This document shows positions 3,163-18,506 of a stretch of DNA of 64,000 bases, one piece after another (position 1 is the first letter of the stretch; each line of letters starts with the position of its first letter). A program made the position numbers and the translations under genes. The notes under the pieces are model-generated. The model saw only the letters and a list, made by a program, of their open reading frames with translations. It did not search any database and was not told the origin of the DNA. The stretch is from a virus (taxonomy: Duplodnaviria > Heunggongvirae > Uroviricota > Caudoviricetes): IMG/VR virus record IMGVR_UViG_3300021400_002728, positions 165,154 through 229,153 of that record. The stretch is one strand, 5' to 3'.

Positions 3163-4992
3163 TTATGAACCGAATGTAGCATTTTCATCTTCTTCATCTT
3201 CATCACGTTTCTTAGCAAACGGGTTGGAAGTAAGAAGATTAACATCATAGATAGACTTAATACGAATAATACCATTACGATTTAATCTATCAATCATAAA
3301 GCAAGTACCAGTAGGAAAGTTGGTAGCTGACGATACAATTGAATCTACGTCAATAGCTGAAGATGGATTGATCTTTGATGTATCAAATGCATCCAAGAAT
3401 AACTGTGCTTCTTCCATAGACGACTTAAACATAAACTTAGTTGTAATATAGTTTGCAATACCTTTAGGGAAGTGAGAAATACCCTGAGATGCGAGTACTG
3501 TAGCAACATTAAGTGAACGTCCAAGAACAAGGAATCTATCAATAATAGCACCCATCTCTTTGTTACCAAATAATAAGTGAGCCTCATCACAAATAAGTGT
3601 TGTAGGAACCTTATTATCACCAGAAAGAATATCCAAGAGCTTAGTTGTAATAATATACAAAATAGCTGATGTAAATCTTTCATTTGCATCATAATCTTCT
3701 GGTTTCTTAGAATAATCAGGTAAGCTAAGACCATGTAATGATATAACCATTGAATCTGTAGCTGAAAGTACAAGAGGCTTTACGTTTGATTCACGAGTAA
3801 AGAGTAACTTACCATACTTGTTATCTTCAAACATCTTAAGCATTGTACCAACAGTCTGTGCTGATTCATTCTGGTTAGCATAAAGATAGTCAGCAACGTC
3901 CTGCATATCATAATAATCACCAGTAGTTTTAGCTCTAGTAACGAAATCAGTTACAATAGGTGTAATACCAATGATTGTGTTTCTATCTAACTTACCACAC
4001 ATGATCTCAATAATAGTCATAAGTGTAGCAGTATCAATAGGTTTTATTCTACCTTTCTCATCGATCTTCTTTAAGAATTCGAATGGATTTAACGCACCAG
4101 GACGAATCTTATTAATATCAATAATATTGATGTTTGGGTTTACATTATATAACTTATCAAAGTCATTCTTAGGGTCAATTGCAATAACTCTCTGACCCAT
4201 ACCTAAGCAATTAGCTGCAATATTTAATAACGCAAATGTCTTACCGCTACCCGGGGATCCTACTACAATAGTTCCGGGCGCATTATTTACCATTTGCGCT
4301 GTTGTAGGTATAGTGATAGGTAATACAAAGCTTCATCTTTATATGGTCAGTTTGTATTTTCCCTCACTTCACACCGTACGTGAGACTTTCACCTCATACG
4401 GCGTTCCATCAGTAGTTTAACAATTCTCGAGTTACTGTTAAACTATTTGACTATGCCCCTTTGCTCTATAGATATTATTCTATTTCATAGCTACTACAGG
4501 CAGCTGCCCTACAGTTTCATAGATCATTTCCTATCTATTATAAGCATTGACTCTTAATAGTCTTAACATCTTATACTGTAGTTCTCTTGTTCCGTTAAGT
4601 TTATCCTTATCTATAATAACTTAGTCTCTGTCTCTAGCTTATAATCCATCTCTTCTTTCTATGATCAGTAAAATAAAGACTAATGCATAATGTTAATGGC
4701 CTAACATTAATACGAATTATAAGTCGTCATAAACAGTTTCTGTACGTAGACATATTATTTTTATAGGACTCCCCGATTTTCATCGACTTTACCGTGCTTT
4801 ATACATTATTAGATTAAGCTAATTATGCATAACGGAGTTTTAGAGAATAAGATGCTGATTCATCTTATAAATGGACTTTCACCATTCAAATCAACTTAAC
4901 AGTTAAATACTATAAAGTATTCCACTAACTTGTTTTCATTTCTGAAGTGTTTCATTAGCGAACAAGACACACGACCATTTTATAGTACTCAT
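3163..4992 (-). CDS. VirB4/HerA-like P-loop ATPase, two exons (4973-4992 and 3163-4309) split by a group II intron; 388 aa spliced
   Basis: Walker A GSPGSGKT, IDPK, Walker B ICDEAH, GRSLN..LASQ; splicing gives MSTIKWSPTTAQMVNNAPG behind a GGAGG RBS. Confidence 0.8.
4310..4972 (-). mobile_element. ORF-less group II intron (663 nt)
   Basis: 5' GTGTG; domain V GAACGCCGTATGAGGTGAAAGTCTCACGTACGGTGTG; domain VI ending ...TTACCTATCACTAT; removal restores frame. Confidence 0.9.
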
Positions 4993-4995
4993 TAT

Positions 4996-6037
4996 TTAAT
5001 TTACCTCCTTCAAATTACTAATATAATTTTCAATATCTAAATTATTCCATAATTCTACAAAATTTAGACTTTGTCCATATTTTCGTTTTTCTGGATCAGA
5101 TTTAGTCCAAATATATATGGCATATTGATATTGTTTACTTGTTTTGGCTTTTTCTATCCAAGTATCTAATGTTTTCTTATCAGATTTATTATGACTATTA
5201 TAAGCATGTGAATTATGCATCCAATAACCATTTATCTCTACATAAGTATTAGATTTAACTAAATAGAAATCGCACATAAAATGGATATTCTTCAGATCTA
5301 TATTGACAATAATAATCTTGATCTTTTACATATCCTAATTCATTTAATTTAGACTCAAATAATGATTCTAACTTACTATGTTTAGGTTTACCTCTTAATG
5401 AATTAGCTCGTTTAATTTGAACTTCTTTAGTACCAATTTTCTTTTTAACTTCATCAGTATTAAGATTACATACTACTCCATATCTTTTAAGATTCGTAGA
5501 CTTTATCTTAGATATTATATCAGGATTCTGTGTAACATATTCAGTTCCATATTTAAATATATTAGTCTGTTTAATCTTAGTCTTTATAGATTCTGAAGCA
5601 TATACATTAGTAGTACCATATTTAGTAAGATTAGTTTGTTCTCTTTTATTATTTGATTCTTTACTATGAGCAGCCTTTATACCATTTTCATGTACTTTAG
5701 GTATTTTTAGAACAGAACTAACTCCATATCGTTCTAGACAAGTTTCTTTAACTTTAACTTGATTATTATAAGTGCTACTTCCATATCGAGCTAATTTAAC
5801 TTGTTTTATTTTATCTATATTATGATTATTAGAACATTTTGCTGAACAGCATTCTAAATAACCTTCAGATAATCCTCTAAATGAAGTTTTCTTTCCACAT
5901 ACTACACAAATACCTTCATTAGGTTTTTTCATATAACTATCGTAATATTCTTGTAAAGTAATCTTATGTACACGAATATGATGACTTAATTTTCGTATAG
6001 ACTCAAACTGAGTTTGACATATACTACAATTTATCAT
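4996..6037 (-). CDS. free-standing homing endonuclease (Zn finger, ERYG-type repeats, Vsr/PD-(D/E)xK-like C-terminus), frameshifted near 5280
   Basis: ORFs 5255-6037 and 4996-5277 join as ...SEEYPF/MCDFYL..YVEING.W.H if one T of a T-run is removed; N-terminus similar to 13169-14236. Confidence 0.7.
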
Positions 6038-6195
6038 TCATCTTCCTCCACCTTATCTTTTACGTTATCTTCTATTTTATTGCCATTTTTATCTAAATAG
6101 AATTTCTGTCCTTTTCCAGGACGTCCTACTACAAAAATATTTGGTGAGTTATTCACCATTTTATCTGATATAGGGTTCCACATAATTGTAGTCAT
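6034..6195 (-). pseudogene. displaced duplicate of the VirB4-like ATPase N-terminus
   Basis: MTTIMWNPISDKMVNNSPNIFVVGRPGKG aligns with MSTIKWSPTTAQMVNNAPGTIVVGSPGSG. Confidence 0.8.
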
Positions 6196-6219
6196 TTTTC
6201 TCCTCCATACAAACAAAAT

Positions 6220-12239: not shown

Positions 12240-12300
12240 ATTTTTACCTCCAAATTTCAACTAAATACTTACTAGTTATTTGATGAGCTTGATTATAGAC

Positions 12301-12360
12301 AAAATGACCAGCTTCATTTCTGAAACCAGTCATTTTTCTCATCCTTATATAATTAAATAG
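12301..12360 (-). repeat. leader element copy 1 (CTATTTAATTATA..GRATGHGAAAAATGAC-hairpin-GTCATTTT)
   Basis: matches 15-copy consensus. Confidence 0.85.
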
Positions 12361-12364
12361 CCTT

Positions 12365-13129
12365 TTATGTACTAAGAATACGTTTAGCTAAATTATCTAT
12401 ACTACCTAAATAATTAGTTACTATTCTAGAATAATCTACAAGCATCTCTGGATCATATTTATCTGGTCTAGCCCAAACTATTCTCTCTACAATACTTTTT
12501 CCAATATCTTTACCATAAGGTTCAGTAGTATCTTCATTATAACTAAAGCATATCATTAAATTATGTATATATTCTTTAGGATTATAATCTATACAAGTTT
12601 TTGGCGCATATTTAACTATCCATTTAGTAGTATTACCATCCTGATAATAATCATCTAAATATTTATTCCAATATTTGCTGTTCCAATCAAATATCCAAAC
12701 TAAGTTATATCCAGCATGTAAATAAAAAGATGTTCTATTAAAAAATTCTTCTGAAGACATTGGACTATGTTGAAATTCTACTACAAAATTCTTATAGCAA
12801 ATATCTGCTATATGTGTCTCTTTAGTCATATCACCTATATAATCTGGATCATTAGGATATAATTCTGCCCAAGTTTTAGTGATTATAACTTCTCTATACT
12901 CTTTAGGAAATAATGACTGACAATACCTATGCCATTCACTCATTTCATTATCATAGTCATCAACACAATCGCTATTAGTTAAATGTGAAAAATATGGAAT
13001 TTTTACATCTCCAGCTTTAAGAATAACTTTTTCTCCACAACATGGACATATATAAGATTTATTTCTACCATACTTATATAAAGCATCATCTGCATATACA
13101 ATTTGGTTATCTAATATAGCTACTTGCAA
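12365..13129 (-). CDS. CoiA-like nuclease
   Basis: CPCCGEKVILKAG..KIPYFSH, HIADI, VEFQHSPMS, GY..VWIFD. Confidence 0.8.
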   Translation of the reverse strand: MQVAILDNQIVYADDALYKYGRNKSYICPCCGEKVILKAGDVKIPYFSHLTNSDCVDDYDNEMSEWHRYCQSLFPKEYREVIITKTWAELYPNDPDYIGDMTKETHIADICYKNFVVEFQHSPMSSEEFFNRTSFYLHAGYNLVWIFDWNSKYWNKYLDDYYQDGNTTKWIVKYAPKTCIDYNPKEYIHNLMICFSYNEDTTEPYGKDIGKSIVERIVWARPDKYDPEMLVDYSRIVTNYLGSIDNLAKRILST

Positions 13130-13168: not shown

Positions 13169-14236
13169 TTAATCTTTTGTTTTAACTAAAGTATCAGCAC
13201 TTAATGGATTGTTCTGGACTAACTCTCCAGCACCATATATAGTATAGTTATTATCTTTATAAATAACTTCAGCCTTAGGAATAGTATTAGTTAAGTTGTT
13301 TTTATTAAAATCATCTTTAGGATAATTATCTGTTCCTAAAATTAGATCTTTTAATAACTGTTTTTGCTCTTCAAAATCTTCAAATTCATATATATGAATA
13401 AGTCGAATACATTTGTCTCTACAAAGTAAAGACTTATTTAGATGATAATCTTTTGGTGCACCCAGTTCAATACTATGCCATCTTGTCCCATTATATTCAA
13501 TACCTATTTTAAGGTCAGGTAAATAAATATCAATTTCTTTAGGTGAAATTACTGATTTACAATCATGTTTTATAGTTCCACTATAAATAGACTGAACAAA
13601 TCTCAATAATTCCATTTCTTTATGAGATCGATTATTATGAATAGTTTCCTCAATATATGTTTCAATTTTAGGAATATCTGAGATATAATAGTAATTAGTA
13701 TATCGTCCACCCTGCAACATTTTTACTGGTTTTATTATATTATCCCAATACCACATCCAGCCATACTTTTCAGTAAGTTGTTCTTTAGTAATTAGCTCTG
13801 GATGCTCAGCAATAAAATTATCTTTTATTTTATATTTAGTCTGTGCAGACTTTATACCAACTTTTTTAGCAATTTCTTTTCTTTTTAATGGATGATCTAC
13901 TCCAAATTTAGCTAATCGATCTTGTTTAATTCTTTCTTTTATTTCTTCAGATTGATATGGATTTTCTACTCCGTATTTTTCAAGATTTGTAGCTTTAAGT
14001 TTTTCTTGAACCTTTGGATCCAATGTGCTACATCTGACTGAACAGTGCCTACGATAACCACCTTTAGTAAGACCTTTGAAACTTGTAGGTTTTCCGCAAT
14101 ACTGACAAAACTCTTCACCTTCAGTTTTTAAGTAAGTATCATAATAGTCTTTTGTAGATAATTTATGTATAAATCTAAGGTGATTCCTAAATTTACCAGT
14201 ATTATCTGTCTCAAAATCACATATAGCACATTTCAT
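13169..14236 (-). CDS. free-standing homing endonuclease (Zn finger + Hef/Vsr-like nuclease) fused to a duplicate of the upstream gene's tail
   Basis: EIDIYLPDLKIGIEYNGTRWHS, IRLIHIYE; ends GELVQNNPLSADTLVKTKD. Confidence 0.8.
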   Translation of the reverse strand: MKCAICDFETDNTGKFRNHLRFIHKLSTKDYYDTYLKTEGEEFCQYCGKPTSFKGLTKGGYRRHCSVRCSTLDPKVQEKLKATNLEKYGVENPYQSEEIKERIKQDRLAKFGVDHPLKRKEIAKKVGIKSAQTKYKIKDNFIAEHPELITKEQLTEKYGWMWYWDNIIKPVKMLQGGRYTNYYYISDIPKIETYIEETIHNNRSHKEMELLRFVQSIYSGTIKHDCKSVISPKEIDIYLPDLKIGIEYNGTRWHSIELGAPKDYHLNKSLLCRDKCIRLIHIYEFEDFEEQKQLLKDLILGTDNYPKDDFNKNNLTNTIPKAEVIYKDNNYTIYGAGELVQNNPLSADTLVKTKD

Positions 14237-14250
14237 TTTTCAAATTCCTT

Positions 14251-15273
14251 TCAATCTTTTACTTCTACTAAAGTATCAATGCTTAGAGGATTATTTTGAA
14301 TAATTATGTCAATAGGTAAGATTTTGAAGTAATCTCTATCTTTTCCCCTGACCCACACCGTGCATGCGACTTTCACCGCACACGGCGCTCCATCAAGGTT
14401 TAATTATTCTCGAGTTACGATTAAACCATTGACTTGTGTCCATTCCTACTACTCTTATTACAAGAGTTATCCACAGTTCGAACACTACTTTTCATCATTA
14501 CTAAAGAAGCTTATTATTCTTCGTCTTCACCATAAAAATATGTATAATGACTTTCCTTGTTCCATAAGATATTATCCGTACATATTAGTTTAGGTGCCTA
14601 TTATAAATATTACTAGCTAGATATAACCCGCCACATATAATGTTTCGTTATATAAGGAATTTCATAGTCCGGAATTTTACTTTTCCTCACTAATAATATT
14701 CTTCGATCATAGGTTCGTCTTACTATATTACTCACCTTGCTAATTTTATGGACGACCGGATTACTAACAACCCGACTTTAGCGAGCTTCATACATAACTC
14801 TTTACAAATTATGCATGTCGCAGTCTCATCGCTATATATTCAGAGCGTTACCTCTTCATTTATATAGTCATATCTTATAGTTCTTATACTATCATAAGGT
14901 CAATCTTTTCAATTGACAACAAGTCGCACCCGGGCAAGACTGTAGCATCATTCCTTTGAGTACAAAGTATACAATGAATGCCAGCACTTCGACCTAATTG
15001 AGTTATCGATTGGATATTACTAATTATTTCATCTTTAAGCGCGTCTTCAGCTTTACCTTCAGTAGTTTTAATACCAGATTTACCGGTCAACTCCGCAATC
15101 TCATCGACGACTATGAGTAGACGTGGCATTTCATCTGTATAGCATTTATCAACACAATTCTTATTGACTGGAATCCAATGTTCACCATCTAATTGAATTT
15201 CAAGCTCAGGTAGTTGAACTTCTACTTTAGCTTTAGCGGCTGAACCGCTATCTTGATGATCGAACCAACCCAT
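14251..15273 (-). CDS. FtsK/SpoIIIE-like ATPase middle fragment, two exons (14930-15273 and 14251-14305); 132 aa spliced
   Basis: MPRLLIVVDEIAEL Walker B, LGRSAGIH..LCTQR; splicing gives ...ATVLPGIIQNNPLSIDTLVEVKD*; no Walker A. Confidence 0.75.
14306..14929 (-). mobile_element. ORF-less group II intron (624 nt)
   Basis: 5' GTGCG; domain V GAGCGCCGTGTGCGGTGAAAGTCGCATGCACGGTGTG; ends ...TTACCTATTGACAT; shares GTAACTCGAGAA with the first intron; removal restores frame. Confidence 0.9.
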
Positions 15274-18258: not shown

Positions 18259-18322
18259 AAAATGACTGATCTATAATCAGACCAGTCATTTTTCTCATTC
18301 TTACTATGTTATAATTAAATAG
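18259..18322 (-). repeat. leader element copy 2
   Basis: matches consensus. Confidence 0.85.
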
Positions 18323-18326
18323 TCTT

Positions 18327-18506
18327 TTATACTTCTACCTGTACAATAAGTACGTTATCTCTAATTTCACACCAAGATACTGTAAGATTAGACTTATCTA
18401 TTTTCTGCGATTCACCAATTTGTCCTTCATATAATACTTCATTTATAGTCTCAATACGAATTCTAGTGTCATTACTAAATGCTGCTATCATTTGTTTAAG
18501 TATCAT
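18327..18506 (-). CDS. 59-aa hypothetical protein (small paralogue family), not in ORF track
   Basis: GAGG RBS, MILKQMIAAFSNDTRIRIETINEVLYEG... Confidence 0.65.
   Translation of the reverse strand: MILKQMIAAFSNDTRIRIETINEVLYEGQIGESQKIDKSNLTVSWCEIRDNVLIVQVEV

Follow-up and report, generated by a model that had tools for sequence, protein, structure and literature searches.

In a 64-kb window (the whole stretch of DNA analysed here, bases 165154-229153 of virus record IMGVR_UViG_3300021400_002728), we find a short FtsK-like gene that is split by a group II intron lacking any open reading frame (ORF) and is followed directly by a gene for a predicted free-standing homing endonuclease. The endonuclease ORF ends in a decaying, in-frame copy of the last codons of the FtsK-like gene, with the junction 4-8 nt from where the intron is inserted, and endonucleases of the same clade adjoin most related alleles that carry the intron. 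We lean towards an explanation in which the two elements spread together by collaborative or trans homing, a process known for group I introns and here involving a group II intron. The 394-kb record is complete, with direct terminal repeats, and therefore represents a jumbo phage; the related sequences derive from metagenomes of gut and rumen.

An ORF-less group II intron splits codon 114 of a short FtsK-like gene

Exon 1 of the host gene (14930..15273; every main feature described here lies on the minus strand) encodes an FtsK/SpoIIIE-like segment running from the Walker B to the TQR motif and ends with the GG of the Gly114 codon. The 624-nt intron follows (14306..14929), and then exon 2 (14251..14305), made up of an A, the codons for IIQNNPLSIDTLVEVKD and TGA, which has the same sequence as the 3' end of intron-less alleles. 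Rfam gave four matches in the window, corresponding to two group II introns, each detected by RF02004 (domains D1-D4) and RF00029 (D5/D6). In the 624-nt intron these lie at 14745-14885 (93.2 bits) and 14306-14390 (59.9 bits over the full model), respectively. The intron starts with GTGCGACTTGTT and contains GTAACTCGAGAA; its RNA begins with GUGCGAC (14929) and ends with ...GACAU (14306), as the GUGYG/AY rule for group II ends predicts. D5 has a CGC triad, D6 carries a bulged A 8 nt before the 3' end, and the fold has a z-score of -4.1 against shuffled controls.

The insertion is in phase 2 within the Gly114 codon (GG/A), and the first base of exon 2 is A here as in all intron-bearing alleles. 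Exact excision yields a protein of 131 amino acids ending in LPGIIQNNPLSIDTLVEVKD, that is, ...LPG-IIQNNPLSIDTLVEVKD and the stop. The spliced sequence occurs as an uninterrupted ORF in L007 and L008 (L-numbers denote related phage loci or contigs, P-numbers related proteins) and in dozens of metagenomic proteins (...LPGIIQNNPLS...), and most of the ~195 homologous protein clusters have it uninterrupted too.

Pairing between the intron and its 5' exon provides further support. Exon-binding site 1 (EBS1, CCGGAC, 14667..14672) pairs at 5/6 positions with intron-binding site 1 (IBS1, GCCCGG), the last six exon bases (14930-14935). In orthologous introns at the same site the EBS1/IBS1 pairs are CUUGGA/UCCAGG, CUGGGA/UCC(C/U)GG and CCAGGU/ACCUGG, with 6/6 pairs in several; among 12 orthologous introns there are compensatory changes at -3 and -6. 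Because loop and exon change together across these orthologues, the intron appears to be under selection to splice. A candidate EBS2, AAGAC, was dropped because it stays constant where the exon differs, and EBS3 was not located in the intron. Rfam, EBS1-IBS1 covariation and the intron-less alleles together confirm both predicted splice sites to the base, and we predict that this is a working group II intron. The sequence-only reading that preceded this analysis had described a 624-nt phase 2 intron, followed by A, that splits the Gly of LPG/IIQNN, and had pointed to EBS/IBS pairing as a check; Rfam and the intron-less alleles support the first, and the covarying EBS1-IBS1 pair bears out the second.

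There is no ORF within the intron, and the complete 394-kb genome, with no RVT_1 match and no GIIM match above noise, is without a reverse transcriptase or maturase of its own. ORF-less introns are an accepted subclass of group II.

The host protein matches Pfam FtsK_SpoIIIE at 21 bits, below the cut-off, and the FtsK/SpoIIIE-like PHROG with E = 8e-16. Its homologues form the ~195 clusters mentioned above, all of 131-157 amino acids. Full-length FtsK-like relatives of 330 amino acids extend well beyond its end; the short form is nonetheless conserved in many phages. No gene for a Walker A partner adjoins it, and the PF01580 fragments elsewhere in the genome score below the cut-off. A second FtsK-like C-terminal fragment, of 233 amino acids, lies directly after another endonuclease gene of the same family in L001 (G000:C1:264177-267335); the FtsK-like genes of this phage appear to be broken up by endonuclease genes.

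The downstream ORF is a predicted EDxHD/Vsr-type homing endonuclease

The stop codon of exon 2 overlaps AAGGA, the ribosome-binding site of the endonuclease gene, whose ORF starts 14 nt past the host stop. The whole ORF, including the tail described below, covers 14236..13169 and encodes 355 amino acids; the native endonuclease part is 13220..14236 and ends with ...YTIYGAGEL. An N-terminal C2H2-like zinc finger is followed by Pfam DUF7487 repeats and a C-terminal Vsr-like nuclease domain. The protein matches the PHROG 'homing endonuclease' with E = 2e-43. For the nuclease domain Pfam gave no match; a family profile of the domain matches PDB 3r3p, the catalytic domain of I-Bth0305I, with E = 1.4e-4. 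An AlphaFold model of the domain has a predicted local distance difference test (pLDDT) score of 91, and a Foldseek search with it places 3r3p and Vsr (1cw0, 1vsr) in the top 8, with probability 0.99-1.0 though with E ~0.01; for the I-Bth0305I domain the template modelling (TM) score on the target is 0.68-0.74. D44, E55 and H62 (numbering of alignment A2), candidate catalytic residues, do not vary among 15 members and lie within the stretch aligned to the 3r3p core. From these profile and structural matches, we predict that the ORF encodes an EDxHD/Vsr-type homing endonuclease.

The family is large, with more than 1000 homologous clusters and at least 10 paralogues in this genome; a full-text literature search found no mention of DUF7487. 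Endonucleases with unrelated N-terminal halves (MKCAICDF... in L030, L032 and L056; MKPIFxCKICGE... in the window and L017) share a near-identical nuclease domain and tail, which points to module swapping within the family. A conserved leader of ~90 nt (GGGTAGCC...AAGCCACTTTA...GGAGAAATA) precedes several of the endonuclease genes (L009:8226-8335, L019:2005-2096, L037:4245-4327 and L056:146-237) and is absent ahead of the one in the window; it may regulate translation.

The endonuclease ORF ends in the displaced 3' end of the host gene

The endonuclease ORF ends with ...GAGELVQNNPLSADTLVKTKD and its stop, and this end matches exon 2 at 12/17 residues with the stop in the same position (tblastn E = 3e-5 against ~300 kb of loci; a DNA alignment was also made). 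The duplicated host tail that the sequence-only reading had reported on the downstream endonuclease is thus real. The same reading had placed the breakpoint exactly at the Gly codon, and here our comparison gives a different answer. Family members natively end with ...YTIYGAGKLY or slightly further on, YGAGKL(Y/V..) before the stop, and GAG(E/K)L is therefore endonuclease sequence. In the window the ORF runs on as GAGEL-VQNNPLSADTLVKTKD to the stop: GGA GAG TTA corresponds to the native endonuclease end, and (GTC) CAG AAC AAT CCA onward to host codons 116-131 and the stop. The junction therefore lies at host codon 115/116, with host sequence resuming at (I/V)QNN 4-8 nt 3' of the splice site. 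The tail itself, VQNNPLSADTLVKTKD and a stop fused in frame to the endonuclease ORF, occupies 13169..13219.

The same GAGKL-(I/V)QNN junction recurs in endonucleases 42-90% identical to that of the window (P0121/L017, L030, L032, P0130/L056 and P0144/L019). Other relatives show the tail in differing states of decay. It is frameshifted in L020, where IDTIVEVKD follows GAGKLY and a stop; it is partly deleted in P0128, which has no host exon within 145 nt upstream; and L009 retains only a decayed trace ahead of a CoiA-like gene. Most members of the clade have no tail ORF and end with GAGKLY. The NNPLS motif, near-invariant in real exon 2 sequences, is degenerate in tails (NNDLE, DNNIE, NNLLS). 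The window and L017 are homologous over a block that opens 21 nt ahead of the host start codon and closes 2 nt beyond the tail stop, with unrelated genes on either side. These decay states, the constant junction and the edge of the homology block argue that the tail is the original host 3' end, displaced, rather than an alternative exon. We regard it as a scar, possibly also a homology arm.

A comparable arrangement is the atp6 element of Allomyces mitochondria, in which a mobile endonuclease ORF brings a substitute gene end, while the resident end, pushed downstream, is joined to that ORF in frame. That element differs from the present one in being mitochondrial, in belonging to another endonuclease family and in having no intron at the junction. 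At the other end of the host gene, in L007:5104-5997, an upstream endonuclease ORF starts with MGWFD, the host gene's own N-terminus, a 5'-end replacement that mirrors the tail.

The intron and one endonuclease clade occur together across related loci

To describe how the two elements are distributed, we scored ~25 distinct related loci for the G114 intron and for an endonuclease of the clade defined by its GAGKL-type C-terminus. Such an endonuclease lies directly downstream in 11/13 alleles with the intron, compared with 1-2/12 alleles without it (Fisher p ~0.001, for loci that are not independent). In intron-less alleles the downstream endonuclease is often of another type (a 521-527-residue type or an MTKEE-type). 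On a tree of exon 1, in which many forks are unresolved, alleles with both intron and endonuclease fall in at least 5 places among intron-less ones.

There are two exceptions. In L037, a GAGKL-type endonuclease is accompanied not by the G114 intron but by another, probably of group I, that lies 9 nt upstream of the G114 site. In L019, a tail-bearing relative (42% identical to the endonuclease of the window), the second of two endonuclease genes there, adjoins an uninterrupted LPGIIQNN site. The codons at this L019 site, CTG CCG ... CAG, are unusual; recoding for immunity was considered, and as this is one locus only we do not use it. Likewise, a TTG-N12-CAA palindrome, whose centre lies 1 nt from the intron site and which loosely resembles the TTxG-N6-CxAA of I-Bth0305I, is not used as evidence because it results from coding for Leu-Pro-Gly-Ile-Ile-Gln.

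Codons 92-116 of the host gene are an insertion hot spot

The G114 site lies in a 25-codon stretch of the host gene, codons 92-116, in which insertions are concentrated. Three positions there hold group II introns, one following Q92, one within R106 and one within G114. L009 (6277-8161) and L044 have all three in one 131-codon gene, with internal exons of 44 nt and 24 nt. L020 (2340-2806), L027 and P0069 carry a probable mini-intein of ~155 amino acids between A109 and T110, five codons ahead of the G114 intron site; the L020-type insert begins with Ala, contains a TxxH block and ends with ...SHN/T, and as Pfam gave no match for it in L020 the call comes from these motifs. The probable group I intron of L037 (L037:3838-4167) lies in the V111 codon; the insert of ~330 nt follows a U, ends in G and matches RF00028 at 23.5 bits, below threshold. 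L033:684-1154 is a 472-nt insert at roughly this same position that matched no Rfam family.

A second group II intron and its endonuclease

The other group II intron of the genome, 663 nt long (4310..4972), lies in an AAA_10 ATPase gene and was detected by Rfam; its EBS1, GGCCAUU, pairs with IBS1 AAUGGUC. These two introns are the only D5/D6 matches in the 394-kb genome. They are 53% identical overall and ~80% identical in D5, which agrees with the kinship proposed for them from sequence alone.

Next to the 663-nt intron, positions 4996..6216 hold a frameshifted endonuclease gene and an orphan ATPase start. The endonuclease (6037..4996) is split by the frameshift into 6037..5255 and 5277..4996. 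Upstream of it is an intron-less copy of the first ~32 codons of the ATPase gene (6216..6034), with a degenerate P-loop, GKGQKF. The earlier suggestion that both introns neighbour the same endonuclease type holds in part: zinc finger and DUF7487 are present at both, but this one is frameshifted and its nuclease is of a different subtype.

A model for joint spread and its alternatives

We propose that three layers make up the 3' end of the host gene. The ORF-less group II intron splits codon 114; an EDxHD/Vsr-type endonuclease cassette would have been inserted at codon 115/116, bringing a replacement copy of the last 17 codons that is the present exon 2; and the gene's original 3' end would have been left behind the endonuclease ORF as the in-frame, decaying tail. 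The endonuclease would cut naive alleles, which have neither intron nor endonuclease gene, at or near ...LPG/IIQNN.... Repair from the donor phage would use exon 1 as the left arm and the tail and its flank as the right arm, and the intron, exon 2 and the endonuclease gene would be copied in together. Because only ~70 nt separate the intron site from the endonuclease start, a cut anywhere in this interval would lead to co-conversion of the two. The replacement 3' end would also rebuild the target in the donor, and therefore an intron 4-8 nt from the junction, by splitting the rebuilt site, would protect it. That the intron splits the endonuclease target is plausible given the constant junction 4-8 nt away, the co-occurrence with one clade and the substitute intron of L037, and the arrangement of the locus suggests that the intron spreads as DNA with the endonuclease and not by reverse transcription. 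We infer the position of the cut, the immunity given by the intron and the present activity of either element. As a full model, collaborative or trans homing with a group II intron has in our judgement a somewhat better than even chance of being right.

Several observations weigh against this model. Since the host gene's tail spans just 17 codons, finding a junction close to the intron site by chance is no more than mildly improbable (~5% when the whole gene is considered). At the 663-nt intron the duplication breakpoint is ~75 nt from the intron's site, and therefore breakpoint and intron site need not coincide. The L019 arrangement indicates that the intron is not required for coexistence with the endonuclease, and L013 and L027 keep the G114 intron with no downstream endonuclease gene. 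The exon-1 tree is poorly resolved, and since the loci are related and their independence is overstated, the association is descriptive and not a strict test. As for the intron itself, EBS1-IBS1 in this allele has a C-A mismatch at -5, and EBS2, sought in five related introns as segments covarying with exon positions -7 to -12, was not located.

The two elements could instead be passive neighbours, an explanation that we consider unlikely but serious. Cassette and intron would then have arrived independently, the endonuclease cutting elsewhere (tens of bp off, or in the flank) or being inactive; their closeness would reflect a shared preference for conserved sequence, and their co-occurrence common descent of one arrangement. 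The hot spot speaks for this, since the same 25 codons have drawn group II introns at three sites as well as a probable group I intron and a probable intein, as do the uncoupling of the two elements in L019, L013 and L027 and the distant breakpoint at the 663-nt intron. The decayed tail scar, found even in L009, fits one old insertion. This explanation does not sit easily with the clade-specific association and the substitute intron of L037, nor with the patchy spread on the exon-1 tree; moreover, at a spacing of ~70 nt any nearby cut would co-convert both elements, as in trans homing by MobE (PMC2790892).

The intron might instead move, or have moved formerly, by classical retrohoming, with a reverse transcriptase supplied in trans by a group II intron of the host cell or of a co-infecting phage, and with the endonuclease irrelevant. 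EBS1 follows IBS1 across alleles, the A at the start of exon 2 is constant in intron-bearing alleles, and it has been proposed that ORF-less phage introns are mobilised in trans (PMC12350094). We nevertheless judge this improbable: the complete phage genome encodes no reverse transcriptase or maturase, selection for splicing predicts the covariation equally well, and the association with the endonuclease is left unexplained. Least credible of all is the idea, raised in part by the sequence-only reading, that the tail functions as an alternative 3' exon or as a C-terminal peptide needed by the endonuclease: it is in frame in the window and five lineages (L017, L030, L032, L056 and L019) and its DTLVEVK(D/E) end is well kept, but a group II 3' splice site directly follows D6 and there is no D5/D6 near 13225, its NNPLS motif is degenerate, and the tail is frameshifted in L020, shortened in P0128 and missing in most clade members.

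Neighbouring features

A CoiA-like nuclease gene (12365..13129; Pfam CoiA_N and CoiA_nuc) lies directly downstream of the endonuclease gene. By synteny it is common to the window and L009 and is not in L007, L008 or L017; it may itself be mobile. Just past it, a 76-nt stretch (12293-12368) is 98.7% identical to L007:8000-8075, and a weaker copy lies at 18281-18331 of the window; by its appearance, this is a repeated intergenic element. A search of GenBank phages with the 4.2-kb region found no related locus; its only matches were D5-like or short and scattered (AR9, PBS1, c-st, Lak).

Relation to known systems and significance

The ingredients of this arrangement are already known: phage group II introns, Vsr-like homing endonucleases, collaborative and trans homing, and terminal replacement. 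In collaborative homing, a free-standing endonuclease cuts the insertion site of an intron and the intron-less allele is converted (PMC3984707), as with F-CphI and the ORF-less psbA group I intron of cyanophage S-PM2 (Zeng, Bonocora and Shub 2009; reviewed in PMC3984707, PMC6083498). As in that case, an ORF-less self-splicing phage intron adjoins a free-standing endonuclease gene, and the proposed logic of cutting, protection and co-conversion is the same. The present locus differs in having a group II intron, an EDxHD/Vsr-like enzyme, and a replacement 3' end with a tail scar, and here the cut at the intron site is one that we infer. MobE, which drives trans homing of the T4 nrdB intron (Wilson and Edgell 2009, PMC2790892), is likewise a neighbouring free-standing endonuclease that mobilises an immobile intron by short-distance co-conversion; it is, however, an HNH enzyme acting with a group I intron, and it cuts away from the intron insertion site.

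With respect to the enzyme, I-Bth0305I is the prototype EDxHD homing endonuclease and cuts immediately beside the intron insertion site (Taylor et al. 2011, PMC3239194; PDB 3r3p). It shares with ours a Vsr-like catalytic domain, a multidomain build and a phage origin but has other N-terminal DNA-binding modules in place of the zinc finger and DUF7487. Merk, Jones and Eddy (2025, PMC12350094) described CapR-like or EDxHD/Vsr-like endonucleases inside phage group II and group I introns, as well as ORF-less introns and jumbo phages. Their modular Vsr-like endonucleases associated with phage group II introns are apparently of the same broad kind as ours. In their cases the endonuclease ORF is inside the intron, whereas here it lies outside, downstream of exon 2; the arrangement in the window could be a stage before invasion of the intron by the endonuclease. 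A full-text literature search found no description of a phage in which a free-standing endonuclease accompanies an ORF-less group II intron.

The locus has consequences for annotation: naive gene calling produces two artefacts here, the tail of the endonuclease and a 129-amino acid ORF that reads through from exon 1. It also shows a way for an endonuclease cassette to enter a coding region harmlessly, by bringing a spare gene end, and it suggests that an adjoining intron could be selected as an immunity device. A more general claim, which we advance tentatively and hold short of even odds, is that the ORF-less group II introns of these gut and rumen jumbo phages move purely as DNA, through a free-standing Vsr-like endonuclease, protecting its target by splitting it. 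Collaborative homing would then have a counterpart among group II introns, one that represents a living intermediate toward endonuclease-containing phage group II introns, and the 25-codon stretch would be a shared landing pad on which self-splicing elements of at least five kinds have settled. Phage group II introns were first reported only in 2025, and naive, intron-only, endonuclease-plus-intron and scar-bearing alleles all exist in nature; this locus and its relatives offer a testable case of endonuclease-driven group II intron mobility that is independent of reverse transcriptase.

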